DNA of 64,000 nt from the NCBI RefSeq assembly GCF_057098645.1, contig NZ_CM169472.1; one strand, 5' to 3'. The position numbers were made by a program, and so were the translations under genes. A model generated the notes under the pieces. The model made no database searches and was not told where the DNA came from. It saw only the letters and a program-made list of their open reading frames with translations. The first letter of the stretch is position 1; every line of letters begins with the position of its first letter. Positions 1 through 17,021 of the stretch are shown piece by piece.

Positions 1-250
1 CTTGTTGCAAAAATACGGCCCCACCGCTGGCATTATTGGTCATATCCGAAAAAACCAGCCATTGCCCATCGGCGATACTCCAGACCTGCGTAATGCCTGA
101 AAGGCTTTGCCTGCTGGCGTGACAACTCGCTTTGATATCATATCCCTGGCATAAATCAATGGCCGCCGCGACACCGTTAGCAGAGAAAAGAGATGCAATC
201 ATTGACGGGAGTAGAGATAAATACTCCTTGCGTAGAAAGATAATCCGCAT
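1..250 (-). CDS. yfaL: Autotransporter adhesin YfaL, N-terminal fragment (gene continues beyond window start)
   Basis: Minus-strand translation from ATG (complement of 248-250) reads MRIIFLRKEYLSLLPSMIASLFSANGVAA..., recognised as the YfaL signal-peptide N-terminus; no stop within window. Confidence 0.6.
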   Translation of the reverse strand, partial: MRIIFLRKEYLSLLPSMIASLFSANGVAAAIDLCQGYDIKASCHASRQSLSGITQVWSIADGQWLVFSDMTNNASGGAVFLQQ

Positions 251-783
251 ATTAATCTGACCATTATTTTATATAAGACGGCATATTTAAACGCATTATA
301 CAATATGGGTTATCTTTCTTTTGTAAATTGTCCAACCCGATGCAATAGCTATTTTGTTATTATTTAATGAATAGTATCAGTGCGTCATAATTCAAGTTAA
401 TAACCTTAAGGGATACCAGTTATATTTAAACTAAATTAAAGTAATGAATAATTTTCTTATAATATAAGGTATATTAACAAAATGGCTTCGCATTTAACAA
501 TAACCGAATAGAAAACAACCATTTCGACATCAACAATCGCTTACATTCGCTTATATATTGACCACAACTGATACATCAGATTATGTGATGACTCGTGCTT
601 AGATCAATTTTTGCAATCATTAGCAAAAAGATTAATAAACCATCTATATCAATTTATCCAACCTATTCTGCCGTTCAAGAAATCGCCGAACAGTTATTTT
701 TAACAAATTTTTCTCTTCCCATTGACTTTCCCGGACACCTTGTCTGACCTAAGGTGCGCGAAAGCCACTTTTTCCTTCCTGAG

Positions 784-804
784 TTATCCACAAAGTTATG
801 CACT
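784..804 (+). promoter_or_regulatory. Two adjacent DnaA boxes (TTATCCACA at 784-792, TTATGCACT at 796-804) upstream of nrdA
   Basis: Exact and 8/9 matches to DnaA box consensus TTATNCACA read directly; nrdAB promoter is known to carry DnaA boxes. Confidence 0.6.
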
Positions 805-821
805 TGCAAGAGGGCCATTTT

Positions 822-867
822 CACACTATCTTGCAGTGAATCCCAAACATACCCCCTATATATAGTG
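822..867 (+). promoter_or_regulatory. Two putative NrdR boxes (CACACTATCTTGCAGTG and CCCCTATATATAGTG) about 31 bp apart at the nrdAB core promoter
   Basis: Palindrome-like 16-17 bp motifs with AT core about 80-120 bp upstream of nrdA ATG; spacing of about three helical turns fits NrdR box pairs. Confidence 0.5.
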
Positions 868-945
868 TTCTAAGCAGCTTCCCGTACTACAGGTAGTCTG
901 CACGAAACTATTGCGGAAAGAATTCCAAAAACAGGTACGACATAC

Positions 946-3231
946 ATGAATCAGAATCTGCTGGTGACAAAGCGCGACGGTAGCACAGAGCGCATCAATC
1001 TCGACAAAATCCATCGCGTTCTGGATTGGGCGGCAGAAGGACTGCATAACGTTTCGATTTCCCAGGTCGAGCTGCGCTCCCACATTCAGTTTTATGACGG
1101 TATCAAGACCTCTGACATCCACGAAACTATTATCAAGGCTGCCGCAGACCTGATCTCCCGTGATGCGCCGGATTATCAGTATCTCGCCGCGCGCCTGGCG
1201 ATCTTCCACCTGCGTAAAAAAGCCTACGGCCAGTTTGAGCCGCCTGCGCTGTACGACCACGTGGTGAAAATGGTCGAGATGGGCAAATACGATAATCATC
1301 TGCTGGAAGACTACACGGAAGAAGAGTTCAAGCAGATGGACACGTTTATCGATCACGACCGTGATATGACCTTCTCTTATGCTGCCGTTAAGCAACTGGA
1401 AGGCAAATATCTGGTACAGAACCGCGTGACCGGCGAAATCTACGAAAGCGCCCAGTTCCTTTATATTCTGGTTGCCGCGTGCCTGTTCTCGAACTACCCG
1501 CGTGAAACGCGCCTGCAATATGTGAAGCGTTTTTACGACGCGGTTTCCACATTTAAAATTTCGCTGCCGACGCCAATCATGTCCGGCGTGCGTACCCCGA
1601 CTCGTCAGTTCAGCTCCTGCGTGCTGATCGAGTGCGGCGACAGCCTGGATTCCATCAACGCCACCTCCAGCGCGATTGTGAAATATGTTTCCCAGCGTGC
1701 CGGGATCGGCATCAACGCCGGGCGTATTCGTGCGCTGGGTAGCCCGATTCGCGGTGGCGAAGCGTTCCATACCGGCTGCATTCCGTTCTACAAACATTTC
1801 CAGACTGCGGTGAAATCCTGCTCTCAGGGCGGCGTGCGCGGCGGTGCGGCAACGCTGTTCTACCCGATGTGGCATCTGGAAGTGGAAAGCCTGCTGGTGT
1901 TGAAAAACAACCGTGGTGTGGAAGGCAACCGCGTGCGCCATATGGACTACGGGGTACAGATCAACAAACTGATGTATACCCGCCTGCTGAAAGGTGAAGA
2001 TATCACCCTGTTCAGCCCGTCCGACGTACCGGGGCTGTACGACGCATTCTTCGCCGATCAGGAAGAGTTTGAACGCCTGTATACCAAATATGAGAAAGAC
2101 GACAGCATCCGCAAGCAGCGTGTGAAAGCCGTTGAGCTGTTCTCGCTGATGATGCAGGAACGTGCATCTACCGGTCGTATCTATATTCAGAACGTTGACC
2201 ACTGCAATACCCATAGCCCGTTTGATCCGGCCATCGCGCCAGTGCGTCAGTCTAACCTGTGCCTGGAGATAGCCCTGCCGACCAAACCGCTGAACGACGT
2301 CAACGACGAGAACGGTGAAATCGCGCTGTGTACGCTGTCTGCTTTCAACCTGGGCGCAATTAATAGCCTGGATGAACTGGAAGAGCTGGCAATTCTGGCG
2401 GTTCGTGCACTTGACGCGCTGCTGGATTATCAGGATTACCCGATCCCGGCCGCCAAACGTGGAGCGATGGGTCGTCGTACGCTGGGTATTGGTGTGATCA
2501 ACTTCGCTTACTACCTGGCGAAGCACGGTAAACGTTACTCCGACGGCAGCGCCAACAACCTGACGCATAAAACCTTCGAAGCGATTCAGTATTACCTGCT
2601 GAAAGCGTCTAATGAGCTGGCGAAAGAGCAAGGCGCGTGCCCGTGGTTTAACGAAACCACTTACGCGAAAGGGATCCTGCCGATCGATACCTATAAGAAA
2701 GATCTGGATGCCATCGCTAATGAACCACTGCATTACGACTGGGAAGCACTGCGTGAATCGATCAAAACGCACGGTCTGCGTAACTCCACGCTTTCTGCCC
2801 TGATGCCGTCCGAGACTTCTTCACAGATCTCTAACGCCACTAACGGTATTGAACCGCCGCGCGGTTACGTCAGCATCAAAGCGTCGAAAGACGGTATTCT
2901 GCGCCAGGTGGTGCCGGACTACGAGCATCTGCACGACGCCTATGAGCTGCTGTGGGAAATGCCGGGTAACGATGGCTACCTGCAACTGGTAGGTATCATG
3001 CAGAAATTTATCGATCAGTCGATCTCTGCTAACACCAACTACGATCCGTCACGCTTCCCGTCAGGAAAAGTGCCGATGCAGCAGTTGCTGAAAGACCTGC
3101 TCACCGCCTACAAATTCGGGGTCAAAACGCTGTATTATCAGAACACCCGTGACGGCGCTGAAGACGCGCAGGACGATCTGGTGCCGTCAATCCAGGACGA
3201 TGGCTGCGAAAGCGGCGCATGTAAGATCTGA
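946..3231 (+). CDS. nrdA: Ribonucleoside-diphosphate reductase 1, alpha subunit
   Basis: 761-aa ORF, MNQNLLVTKRDGSTERINLDKIHRVLDWAAEGL...; class Ia RNR large subunit; followed by nrdB and yfaE. Confidence 0.97.
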   Translation: MNQNLLVTKRDGSTERINLDKIHRVLDWAAEGLHNVSISQVELRSHIQFYDGIKTSDIHETIIKAAADLISRDAPDYQYLAARLAIFHLRKKAYGQFEPPALYDHVVKMVEMGKYDNHLLEDYTEEEFKQMDTFIDHDRDMTFSYAAVKQLEGKYLVQNRVTGEIYESAQFLYILVAACLFSNYPRETRLQYVKRFYDAVSTFKISLPTPIMSGVRTPTRQFSSCVLIECGDSLDSINATSSAIVKYVSQRAGIGINAGRIRALGSPIRGGEAFHTGCIPFYKHFQTAVKSCSQGGVRGGAATLFYPMWHLEVESLLVLKNNRGVEGNRVRHMDYGVQINKLMYTRLLKGEDITLFSPSDVPGLYDAFFADQEEFERLYTKYEKDDSIRKQRVKAVELFSLMMQERASTGRIYIQNVDHCNTHSPFDPAIAPVRQSNLCLEIALPTKPLNDVNDENGEIALCTLSAFNLGAINSLDELEELAILAVRALDALLDYQDYPIPAAKRGAMGRRTLGIGVINFAYYLAKHGKRYSDGSANNLTHKTFEAIQYYLLKASNELAKEQGACPWFNETTYAKGILPIDTYKKDLDAIANEPLHYDWEALRESIKTHGLRNSTLSALMPSETSSQISNATNGIEPPRGYVSIKASKDGILRQVVPDYEHLHDAYELLWEMPGNDGYLQLVGIMQKFIDQSISANTNYDPSRFPSGKVPMQQLLKDLLTAYKFGVKTLYYQNTRDGAEDAQDDLVPSIQDDGCESGACKI

Positions 3232-3240
3232 TATTGAGAT

Positions 3241-3530
3241 GCCGGATGCGGCGTAAACGCCTTATCAGGCCTACGGCTCGGTTTGTAGGCCTGATAAGAC
3301 GCGCCAGCGTCGCATCAGGCTCCGGGTGCCGGATGCAGCGTGAACGCCTTATCCGGCCTACGACTCGGATTTGTAGGCCTGATAAGACGCGCCAGCGTCG
3401 CATCAGGCTCCGGGTGCCGGATGCAGCGTGAACGCCTTATCCGGCCTACGACTCGGATTTGTAGGCCTGATAAGACGCGCCAGCGTCGCATCAGGCACAG
3501 GATGCGGCGTAAAATGCCTTATCCGGCATT
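3241..3530. repeat. BIME/REP array: three tandem ~88-bp units of inverted REP palindromes in the nrdA-nrdB intergenic region
   Basis: Units start near 3241, 3327 and 3415; each has GCCGGATGC(A/G)GCGT(A/G)AACGCCTTATCCGGCCTAC followed by GTAGGCCTGATAAGACGCGCCAGCGTCGCATCAGGC. Confidence 0.85.
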
Positions 3531-10714: not shown

Positions 10715-14779
<4,065 letters not shown>

Positions 14780-14790
14780 ACTCCTTTCTG

Positions 14791-14826
14791 ATGCCCGGTA
14801 AGCATGTGGTTACCGGGCATTTTTGC
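14791..14826 (+). terminator. Intrinsic terminator after glpC
   Basis: ATGCCCGGTAAGCATGTGGTTACCGGGCAT hairpin followed by TTTTTG. Confidence 0.7.
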
Positions 14827-14971
14827 GTACACGATTCCGTGCCCAGTGTATGCGTTGCAACGCAGTGAAAATTCCTCTGAAAACGTCTCGCAAAGGCTGA
14901 AACTGGCAGATGTCAAAGGCCTGGGATAACCGTAATGTCGCGTCATCATAAATATCAGGTGACGGACAACC

Positions 14972-15943
14972 ATGACCGAATCAACAACCTCCTCCCCGCA
15001 TGATGCGGTGTTTAAAACCTTTATGTTCACACCCAAAACCGCACGGGATTTTCTCGAAATACATTTACCAGAACCACTGCGCAAGCTTTGCAACCTGCAA
15101 ACCTTACGCCTGGAACCCACTAGTTTTATTGAAAAAAGTTTACGCGCTTACTACTCGGATGTTTTGTGGTCCGTGGAAACCAGCGACGGTGACGGCTATA
15201 TCTACTGCGTGATTGAACATCAAAGCTCTGCAGAAAAGAATATGGCTTTTCGGCTAATGCGCTATGCCACTGCCGCCATGCAGCGTCACCTGGACAAAGG
15301 CTATGACAGAGTCCCGCTGGTGGTGCCGTTGCTGTTTTATCATGGCGAAACCTCGCCCTACCCGTACTCACTCAACTGGCTGGATGAGTTTGACGATCCG
15401 CAACTTGCCCGGCAGTTGTACACCGAAGCTTTTCCATTGGTGGATATTACCATCGTACCTGACGATGAGATCATGCAACATCGGCGTATAGCTCTGCTTG
15501 AACTGATTCAAAAGCATATTCGCGACCGCGATTTAATCGGTATGGTCGACAGGATCACCACGCTTTTGGTTAGAGGCTTCACTAATGACAGCCAGCTACA
15601 AACACTGTTTAATTATCTGCTGCAATGCGGCGATACCTCCCGTTTCACCCGTTTTATTCAGGAGATTGCCGAACGTTCACCACTACAAAAGGAGAGATTA
15701 ATGACTATTGCTGAACGGCTGAGGCAGGAAGGGCATCAAATTGGTTGGCAGGAAGGTAAATTAGAAGGTTTGCAGCAAGGTAAATTGGAGGGTCTGCAGA
15801 AAGGTAAATTAGAAGGTTTGCAGGAAGGCATGCATGAGCAAGCCATTAAAATTGCCTTGCGCATGCTGGAGCAGGGCTTTGAACGTGAGATTGTGCTGGC
15901 GGCAACCCAACTCACTGATGCTGATATTCCGAACTGTCATTAA
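14972..15943 (+). CDS. yfaD: Rpn-family recombination-promoting nuclease (PD-(D/E)XK / YhgA-like putative transposase family)
   Basis: 323-aa [55 protein letters not shown]...[21 protein letters not shown]...; recognised as YfaD (RpnB); C-terminal region holds three 8-aa (GKLEGLQx) repeats. Confidence 0.9.
15701..15943 (+). CDS. Putative nested in-frame small ORF inside yfaD (RpnS-like C-terminal domain, 80 aa)
   Basis: In-frame ATG at 15701 preceded by AAAAGGAGAGATTA, nearly identical to the ypaA ribosome-binding context; would give [25 protein letters not shown]...; expression is inference. Confidence 0.4.
15749..15820 (+). repeat. Three tandem 24-nt coding repeats (CAGNAAGGTAAATTRGARGGTYTG) inside yfaD
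   Basis: Read directly: CAGGAAGGTAAATTAGAAGGTTTG / CAGCAAGGTAAATTGGAGGGTCTG / CAGAAAGGTAAATTAGAAGGTTTG. Confidence 0.85.
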
Positions 15944-15955
15944 AAGGAGAGATTG

Positions 15956-16177
15956 ATGACTATTGCTGAACGGCTACGGCAGGAAGGACATCAAATTGGC
16001 TGGCAAGAAGGTAAATTAGTAGGTTTGCAGCAAGGTAAATTAGAAGGTTTGCAGGAAGGCATGCATGAACAAGCCATTAAAATTGCTTTGCGCATGCTGG
16101 AGCAGGGCTTTGATCGTGACCTGGTGCTCGCGGCCACCCAGCTAAGCGAAGCCGATCTGGCAGCGAATAACCACTAA
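15956..16177 (+). CDS. ypaA: Small protein YpaA: free-standing duplicate of the YfaD/RpnB C-terminal domain
   Basis: 73-aa [76 protein letters not shown], about 85-90% identical to the last 80 aa of yfaD; own SD AAGGAGAG; two 24-nt repeat units. Confidence 0.85.
   Translation: MTIAERLRQEGHQIGWQEGKLVGLQQGKLEGLQEGMHEQAIKIALRMLEQGFDRDLVLAATQLSEADLAANNH
16004..16051 (+). repeat. Two tandem 24-nt coding repeats inside ypaA (same family as in yfaD)
   Basis: CAAGAAGGTAAATTAGTAGGTTTG / CAGCAAGGTAAATTAGAAGGTTTG. Confidence 0.8.
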
Positions 16178-16185
16178 TTAACACA

Positions 16186-16214
16186 GGCCCACAGCCGATC
16201 CCCATGGGCCTTTG
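16186..16214 (+). terminator. Hairpin after ypaA (GGCCCA...TGGGCC followed by TTTGAT)
   Basis: 6-bp GC-rich stem with 13-nt loop between convergent ypaA and rhmA; U-tract is weak. Confidence 0.4.
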
Positions 16215-16217
16215 ATA

Positions 16218-17021
16218 TCAATAACTACCTTTTATGCGTGGCCCATTTTTGCCTGATTTAAACATCGCCAGTCGTTGATCCAGGGCATCGCTGTAGAGCA
16301 TCGTGTCAACGCCAACAGCGACAAAGTTCGCTCCCCACGCCAGGCATTGCTGCGCCATATCAGGAGCCACAGCCAGAAAGCCAGCCGCTTTACCCGCAGC
16401 ACGGATCCGCCGAATACTGGTTTCAATAATTCGCTGCACTTCCGGGTGCCCAGCGTTATCCGGGTAGCCCAACGACGCAGAAAGATCCGCAGGTCCAATA
16501 AACACGCCATCAATCCCTTGGACGTCGAGGATTTCGTCCAGATTATCCAGTGCCGTTTTACTTTCCACCTGCACTAACAGACAAAGTGAATCGTTGACTT
16601 GCGCCATGTAATTCTCAATGCGTCCCCAGCGCGCAGCCCGTGCCACACTGGCCCCGACTCCACGCTCACCGTAGGGAGGATAGCGCGTGGCAGACACCAC
16701 CAGACGTGCCTGATCGGCAGTATCGACCATCGGGATCAGTAGAGTTTGCGCGCCAATATCCAGGACTTGTTTAATCAGCGGTTTACTGCCTTCCACCGGA
16801 CGGATCACGGGTTGGCTGGCATAGGGGGCTACCGCCTGTAGCTGGTGATAAAGATCCTGAATGGTGTTTGGCGCGTGCTCCCCATCAATCAGCAACCAGT
16901 CATAACCGGAAGTGGCGGCAATTTCTGCCATATAGGCAGTTGTTGAGCTTAACCACAGACCAATTTGCACTTCGCCCTTGCGTAAACGTTCTTTAAAGGG
17001 ATTGCTTAATAATGCGTTCAT
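16218..17021 (-). CDS. rhmA: 2-keto-3-deoxy-L-rhamnonate aldolase (HpcH/HpaI family)
   Basis: Start at [52 protein letters not shown]...; 267 aa; the ORF-track call from 17324 runs into rhmT. Confidence 0.9.

Follow-up and report, generated by a model that had tools for sequence, protein, structure and literature searches.

What does it mean that one short repeat is carried in different copy numbers by two adjacent genes of the same genome? The question is raised by a segment of the E. coli chromosome, flanked by glpC and rhmA (yfaU), in which the gene rpnE (yfaD) is followed by the small gene ypaA and each carries an array of the repeat. The DNA analysed, called the window here, is a single stretch of 64 kb. 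Strain 95-3192 is 100% identical to it over 561 nt (megablast, window 15640–16200). According to the original prediction, the number of repeats may tune the interaction between a long and a short protein. The anatomy of the locus, the extent of its variation and the molecular footprints of length-change events were read directly from the sequences. Taken together with work on related genes, the feature is very probably a hypervariable four-residue repeat that lengthens the first helix of the RpnS module, the number of units setting the pairing of RpnS with RpnL.

The gene rpnE (14972–15943, plus strand), an open reading frame that bears this name in RefSeq, encodes the full-length protein RpnE_L of 323 aa, which consists of a PD-(D/E)XK 'Transposase_31' nuclease domain and a C-terminal RpnS module. 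Profile searches found the N-terminal PD-(D/E)XK nuclease that characterizes the Rpn family. PF04754 matched residues 8–209 (E = 1e-87, Pfam), RpnE scored 720 bits with the equivalog model NCBIfam NF007418 (cut-off 583), and TIGR01784, the model of the Rpn family, gave 178 bits (cut-off 52). Searching PADLOC-DB 2.0 yielded no Rpn match and a single weak match to a 'putative invertase' (RpnE, E = 0.0019; YpaA, E = 0.0097); this library dates from 2023 and is probably older than the recognition of Rpn as a defence system. A promoter scan of 14700–16400 found no sigma-70-like sites, against 1.9 expected, which is neutral toward the internal promoter reported in the literature and speaks neither for nor against it. 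An antisense open reading frame of 59 aa across the rpnE array (15736–15915), with KPSNLPxC repeats, was rejected as a mechanical by-product of the repeat that carries no evidence of being a gene.

Within rpnE, a Shine–Dalgarno sequence AAGGAG (15689–15694, plus strand) precedes the in-frame ATG at 15701 by 6 nt. Translation from this codon gives RpnE_S (15701–15943, plus strand), an 80-aa in-frame internal product presumed to be the intragenic antitoxin. The internal ribosome-binding site and start expected of the Rpn family are thus present in rpnE as judged from sequence only, and use of the internal start of K-12 rpnE has been reported in the literature from Ribo-RET and SPA tagging. Meydan et al. 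described the internal product of rpnE as closely resembling YpaA.

A second AAGGAG (15944–15949, plus strand) was read directly 3' of the rpnE stop codon TAA (15941–15943), and AAGGAG-N6-ATG is common to the starts of RpnE_S and ypaA. From its ATG, ypaA (15956–16177, plus strand) is an open reading frame for a stand-alone duplicate of RpnE_S, 73 aa long and with a diverged tail; Zhong and colleagues renamed it rpnE_Ss, the second and expressed copy of RpnE_S (Zhong et al., PNAS 2023; PMC10400941). Local alignment placed the segment 15687–15925, which comprises the Shine–Dalgarno sequence, the start codon, the array and most of the RpnS module, against a second copy at 15942–16156 (both on the plus strand), and the sole gap in this alignment is one of 24 nt within the array. 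Thus, ypaA is a copy of the RpnE_S region together with its ribosome-binding site. It has the features of an RpnSs gene, being a separate intact open reading frame with its own ribosome-binding site and arising from a duplicated, adjacent RpnS region. The same rpnE–ypaA arrangement is found in K-12 and in E. fergusonii-type and E. marmotae-type loci. PF27070 (HTH_Rpn_C) is recorded as a precomputed domain on homologues. The description of the two proteins as otherwise near-identical was overstated, since 63 of 81 positions (78%) are identical. RpnE_S and YpaA agree fully in the first 16 residues and in the block after the array, and the last ~20 residues differ (tail on the YpaA side, DRDLVLAATQLSEADLAANNH).

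The rpnE array (15749–15832, plus strand) is made up of three 24-nt double units (15749–15820) and a terminal 12-nt unit QEGM, and the ypaA array (16004–16063, plus strand) of two such double units (16004–16051) and a terminal 12-nt unit QEGM. The first ypaA double unit carries a GAA to GTA change (E to V). The sequence confirmed the three units in yfaD, the two in ypaA and the E-to-V change on which the original prediction was based. The interval given in that prediction, 15749–16051, brackets both arrays, opening with the rpnE array and closing where the second ypaA unit ends. The array of the window is six 4-aa units longer than the K-12 allele in rpnE and four 4-aa units longer than the shortest allele in ypaA.

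Tandem Repeats Finder reported the rpnE array at 15743–15828 (period 24, 3.6 copies, 83% matches, score 130) and the ypaA array at 16008–16059 (period 24, 2.2 copies, 92% matches), and it found no further period-24 arrays within the 64-kb window. Self-similarity was also scanned as lag-24 and lag-12 identity in every 84-nt stretch of the window. At lag 24 the rpnE array reached an identity of 0.83 and the ypaA array one of 0.75, whereas no other stretch exceeded 0.52 and the window averaged 0.265 (sd 0.062); the arrays far exceed chance self-similarity. At lag 12 the highest identity was again that of the rpnE array (0.49; window mean 0.272, sd 0.055), which reveals a 12-nt sub-period beneath the 24-nt period. 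Each double unit is composed of QxGK and LEGL, the 4-aa unit following the G-x3 pattern QEGK/LEGL. Lengths differ only in steps of 12 nt, which makes four residues the basic unit. The 24-nt, 8-aa unit described earlier is real as a double unit and was mistaken as the basic one. Likewise, 24 nt as the sole unit of change was ruled out by alleles with 1, 3, 5 and 7 extra units. The variable units of RpnE_S start at residue 17, and both rpnE and ypaA show the strain-variable 12-nt repeats, 8–20 residues past the Met of RpnS, that are a mark of the Rpn family.

How far the arrays vary was determined by a census of complete E. coli genomes. The locus is present in 5,420 of 5,426 genomes (megablast, window 15640–16200). 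Identity to the window over the 561 nt reaches 99% or more in only 28 of the 5,426, and the exact rpnE array allele of the window (191 nt, at least 99% identity) occurs in 34 of 5,426, including one O145 strain. Two evenly spaced draws from the BLAST ranking (60 and 53 rows) gave 111 distinct genomes. Most census rows were classed by BLAST signature rather than by reading the sequence; 25 loci were fetched, and each signature class was checked on sequence with one to three loci apiece. The shortest form, W-QEGM-HEQ, was set to zero, and each further four-residue unit was counted.

Two genes were found in 62 (56%) of the 111 genomes and one fused gene, made up of the rpnE body and a ypaA-type tail, in 49 (44%), in a collection that is skewed to clinical and laboratory lineages and whose genomes are phylogenetically non-independent. 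Given as (rpnE, ypaA), the two-gene combinations were (0,1), the K-12 type, in 28 sampled genomes; (8,4), the ST131 type, in 8; (5,1) and (5,0) in 5 each; (5,2) in 4; (6,2), (8,6), (8,1) and (1,4) in 2 each; and (6,4) of the window, (4,4) of E2348/69, (3,1) and (7,1) in 1 each. The fused gene carried 0 units in 37 genomes, 2 units in 10 (O157:H7, CFT073 and 83972 among them) and 5 units in 2. Thirteen combinations and three fused-gene classes were therefore counted in 111 genomes, and copy number varies as predicted. Invariant repeat number across strains, named beforehand as the result that would speak against the prediction, was accordingly not what the census returned. That the two paralogues differ within one genome was borne out by 12 of the 13 combinations, the (6,4) of the window among them. 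Among the fetched loci, rpnE had 0, 1, 3, 4, 5, 6, 7 or 8 extra units and ypaA 0, 1, 2, 4 or 6; the 120 small-protein clusters listed from the protein database had arrays with 0 to 9 extra units. Every insertion or deletion in 29 loci and in the 120 listed database proteins was an in-frame multiple of 12 nt.

The events by which the arrays change length have left distinct footprints. Two ST131-type loci (L003 and L006), compared for 1.5 kb from the start of rpnE, show no substitution and are set apart by one perfect 24-nt duplication in ypaA, so that recent changes of exactly 24 nt exist and the slipped-strand type of change anticipated in the original prediction was seen. K-12 and locus L008 differ by a clean 96-nt indel of eight units, bounded by the 10-nt repeat CAGGAAGGTA. 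Loss of 12 nt between GAAGG repeats, TTAGAAGG[TTTGCAGGAAGG]CATG, would produce the alleles with an odd number of units, which are attributed to deletion between these microhomologies. The V-bearing ypaA unit has itself been duplicated in alleles P0012 and P0025. Pairs of loci with at most 6 mismatches in 2.5 kb of flank are often unlike in array state. New lengths would thus arise by slipped-strand events or unequal recombination between 12- and 24-nt units. A published proposal holds that RpnL has a part in promoting such changes.

A second class of footprints involves both genes. Apart from 3 substitutions, locus L005 differs from K-12 by a clean deletion of 195 nt that fuses the array region of rpnE with the tail of ypaA, as would be expected had the two direct copies recombined unequally. 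L012 combines an array of rpnE type with a tail of ypaA type, P0020 has a chimeric tail, and P0015 has the V-bearing ypaA-type array of the window with an rpnE-type tail, so that the crossover points vary among these alleles. Loci attributed by their source to E. fergusonii and E. marmotae have the order glpC-rpnE-ypaA, both tail types and unit numbers of (5,2) and (2,5). The two-gene state in these loci indicates that the duplication predates E. coli and that the one-gene state is derived. New lengths may therefore also come from homologous exchange between the rpnE and ypaA copies, and such exchange could delete the interval between them to leave one fused gene.

What unit number does is known from other Rpn paralogues. 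Zhong and colleagues showed that the RpnL proteins act as DNA endonucleases and are toxic, and that they are countered by the RpnS antitoxins translated from within their own genes (PNAS 2023; PMC10400941). According to the same paper, addition of one KGIE repeat to RpnC_S or RpnC_L abolishes neutralization, which is restored if both proteins carry it. Toxicity and neutralization were established for RpnA, RpnB and RpnP2, repeat matching for RpnC, and protection from phage only for the plasmid-encoded RpnP2 (PMC10400941). The toxin and antitoxin functions, the dimer interface and the repeat-matching rule are taken here from this literature on other Rpn paralogues, and we infer that the matching rule holds for RpnE and YpaA too.

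RpnE_L always holds a perfectly matched RpnE_S within itself. YpaA is a different matter. Equal rpnE and ypaA numbers occur in one of the 13 combinations, the (4,4) of E2348/69. With the marginal distributions taken as independent, 12 of 169 pairings (7%) would be equal, or ~0.9 of 13 expected against 1 observed, and equal numbers are thus neither avoided nor enriched. An early impression that equal arrays are avoided, based on the lack of a match in the first 10 two-gene loci, was dropped after E2348/69 (4,4) and the chance rate were considered. If YpaA served as a matched antitoxin of RpnE_L, equal numbers should be enriched, and the absence of enrichment counts against this role. Should the matching rule of RpnC extend to RpnE, the mismatched YpaA carried by most genomes (6 against 4 units in this one) would be an ineffective antitoxin for the resident toxin. 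With equal arrays so scarce, one may ask what YpaA is for if neutralization needs matched numbers.

One answer would be that YpaA is not kept as a matched antitoxin and instead acts as a reservoir from which recombination draws other tails and helix-1 lengths, thereby giving the toxin a new oligomerization/antitoxin module in a single step. This reading, suggested by the independent variation of the YpaA and RpnE arrays in the same genome, is possible and on balance doubtful. If true, its products would include the one-gene fusions (~44% of sampled genomes) and the chimeras with differing crossover points, and the reservoir would diversify Rpn specificity faster than slippage alone. A related reading, in which YpaA is a spare module and no working antitoxin, and recombination swaps the C-terminal array and tail of the toxin as a cassette-like specificity switch, is likewise tentative and less likely to be right than wrong. 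It would account for the ypaA-type tail of the one fused gene in ~44% of sampled genomes, for the differing crossover points of L012, P0020 and P0015, for the derived position of the fusion given the two genes of E. fergusonii- and E. marmotae-type loci, and for array numbers that are unequal in 12 of 13 combinations. However, fusion by deletion destroys the donor and is a one-way event that leaves no reusable cassette, while non-destructive gene conversion is inferred solely from shared unit types. Moreover, YpaA is translated according to the literature and so is not silent, and the fusions had already been noted by Zhong and colleagues (PMC10400941).

RpnA_S (7TH0) was the only Protein Data Bank match to RpnE_S, and a weak one (E = 0.19). 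Residues 1–13 of RpnE_S are identical to chain residues 1–13 of 7TH0 at 12 of 13 positions, and residues 47–76 align with chain residues 15–44; by this split of the alignment, the array would be an insertion in helix 1. In the Rpn family, RpnS is a helical bundle that dimerizes through its long first helix, as known from the crystal structure of RpnA_S (PMC10400941). An AlphaFold2 model of the RpnE_S monomer, built from an alignment of 36 alleles, predicted a continuous helix from residue 3 to 57 through the array and another from 62 to 69, with moderate confidence (mean pLDDT 74; 60–67 in the array). The RpnE_S of the window contains nine G-x3 units in a row, with glycines spaced four residues apart between G11 and G43 and with Glu, Gln, Lys and Leu in the positions between them. 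No allele seen departs from the G-x3 periodicity, and the motif fits a helix–helix interface with its register set by the number of units. As a side observation, RpnE was also matched by the Yae1_N profile (E = 3e-4) and by FliH models (E down to 1.6e-9, but at most 37 bits against curated cut-offs of 180–293); these matches are explained by the nine G-x3 units.

Could the array nevertheless be a neutral, slippage-prone linker of low complexity, whose length is unconstrained and irrelevant to the partner specificity of RpnE and YpaA? Such a linker agrees with the independent variation of the arrays within a genome, where equal numbers occur in 1 of 13 combinations and chance predicts ~0.9, and also with the fact that alleles with zero extra units are commonest, the K-12 type and the fused type without extra units making up ~59% of sampled genomes. 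It is nonetheless improbable. All indels in the 29 loci and the 120 listed database proteins keep the frame in steps of 12 nt, the G-x3 periodicity is strict in each allele, the flanking residues of the module vary little or not at all, and a single extra repeat alters specificity in the paralogue RpnC (PMC10400941). Finally, errors in the assembly of tandem repeats, which short-read assemblies can collapse, are a negligible source of the differences between genomes, as the arrays of only 12–108 nt lie well inside single reads, the collection consists of complete genomes only, all lengths are in frame and the classes recur in independent assemblies (e.g. 28 K-12-type and 8 ST131-type sampled rows).

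The reading preferred here is that the repeat lengthens helix 1 of a module that occurs twice in the window, once as the C-terminus of RpnE_L, also translated separately as the antitoxin RpnE_S, and once as YpaA. If helix 1 is the RpnS dimer interface in these proteins, the number of units would set the length and register of the helix. Length and register, in turn, would decide which RpnS pairs with which RpnL. The array would then be a hypervariable specificity determinant of an antiphage toxin–antitoxin family, recognized from the raw letters alone.

Among known systems, the closest are the Rpn systems themselves (RpnA–E and RpnP2; PMC10400941), in which the gene of a PD-(D/E)XK RpnL also encodes RpnS from an in-frame internal start, and helix 1 carries strain-variable 12-nt repeats that begin 8–20 residues past the Met. 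The rpnE/ypaA locus belongs to the same family, has the same architecture and displays the same phenomenon, with no difference in kind. Zhong and colleagues reported that four-amino-acid repeats are strain-variable in all E. coli RpnS and RpnSs proteins, and that downstream RpnSs copies can disappear, either deleted or fused to the rpn gene (PMC10400941). Since that paper published the phenomenon, ypaA included, the repeat variation at this locus is already known; its detection here is a rediscovery and adds no new biology. The tuning of specificity between long and short proteins by repeat number, as originally predicted, corresponds to the published Rpn model and is supported to that extent. 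The main text of Zhong et al. contains no allele census of rpnE/ypaA and no comparison of arrays within a genome, and it does not mention a resemblance to GxxxG motifs or FliH. The census, the chance-level equality of the two arrays and the motif likeness therefore go beyond that main text.

The TAEL repeats of HsdS (EcoR124I/EcoR124II), cited as an analogy by Zhong et al. (PMC10400941), are like those of Rpn in that a four-residue repeat forms a helical spacer whose copy number sets specificity. Whereas the HsdS repeats set the spacing of DNA targets, the Rpn repeats are thought to set protein–protein pairing. Contingency loci, which undergo phase variation by slipped-strand mispairing, also share an intragenic tandem repeat in a defence-linked gene whose length varies among close strains. 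In rpnE/ypaA, in contrast, the units are of 12 or 24 nt and all changes are in frame. The alleles all differ by multiples of 12 nt and the frame is kept, so no on/off switching results; neither a frameshift nor a promoter-spacing switch, by which contingency loci are defined, was found in any rpnE/ypaA allele seen.

RpnE_S also has the properties of a protein with a long GxxxG helix, with many consecutive G-x3 units in a segment that is predicted to be helical and in which dimerization is implicated. Long GxxxG repeats have been described as rare, with 0 to 12 units in FliH/YscL of different species (PMC2674601), and the deca-GX3 motifs of Yae1/Lto1 mediate complex formation (PMC4523923). FliH/YscL and Yae1/Lto1 have only the motif in common with RpnE_S, and homology is unsupported. 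The likeness to these rare repeats nevertheless suggests a structural reason why pairing may depend on helix length. While the number of units in FliH differs between species, that in RpnE and YpaA differs between strains of E. coli and between two paralogues in one genome.

In most genomes, ypaA, the stand-alone duplicate of the short protein RpnE_S, is annotated by RefSeq/PGAP as a pseudogene ('incomplete; missing N-terminus'). Among the rpnE/ypaA loci fetched from other genomes, this call is carried by L002, L003, L006-L011, L013-L015, L019 and L024. The pseudogene feature begins immediately 3' of the rpnE stop codon, and the loci annotated in this way contain an intact ypaA open reading frame with its own AAGGAG and ATG. 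The annotations of K-12 and of a small number of further genomes give ypaA as a normal coding sequence of 61 or 73 amino acids. The pseudogene calls look like an annotation artefact stemming from similarity to the full-length Rpn model.

The ypaA homologue of the Escherichia marmotae type (locus-internal positions 2501-2728 in L028 and L029) ends at its C-terminus in ...DRDLAARSHPAKRSRSGSE instead of the conserved tail VLAATQLSEADLAANNH, a difference that appears to be the result of a frameshift. In addition, BLAST returned up to four match sites for the rpnE/ypaA query in a few E. coli genomes, none of which is among the 111 sampled genomes; in such genomes the small gene could be present in additional tandem copies. 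A 59-amino-acid ORF on the minus strand (window 15736-15915) crosses the repeat array and has a repeat of its own, KPSNLPxC. In all likelihood, the repeat on the sense strand gives rise to this antisense ORF mechanically, as a by-product.

Between the convergent ypaA and yfaU (rhmA) genes, the terminator scan located a GC-rich 10-bp hairpin (window 16185-16211), which scored as a terminator on the minus strand only and may serve both genes. Downstream of ypaA, the window contains the rhamnonate genes rhmT and rhmD. These are missing from the strains of L020, L021, L026 and L027, in which a truncated yfaU adjoins yfaY (1776-3258 in L020 and L021; 2740-5150 in L026 and L027). The truncation and gene loss constitute a deletion polymorphism immediately beside the rpnE locus.

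Elsewhere in the window, an 88-nt unit is tandemly repeated 2.9 times with 97% identity (3240-3496), seemingly as a REP/BIME cluster. Its consensus includes palindromic units of the GCCGGATG...CCTTATCCGGCCTAC type.

Within RpnE_S, nine consecutive G-x3 units place glycine at every fourth residue (residues 9-44; window 15725-15832). The Rpn paper (Zhong et al., 2023; PMC10400941) makes no mention of a likeness between the Rpn repeat and the motifs of Yae1_N or FliH. The G-x3 run gave weak profile matches to both Yae1_N (deca-GX3) and FliH (GxxxG repeats), because of this nine-unit glycine periodicity.
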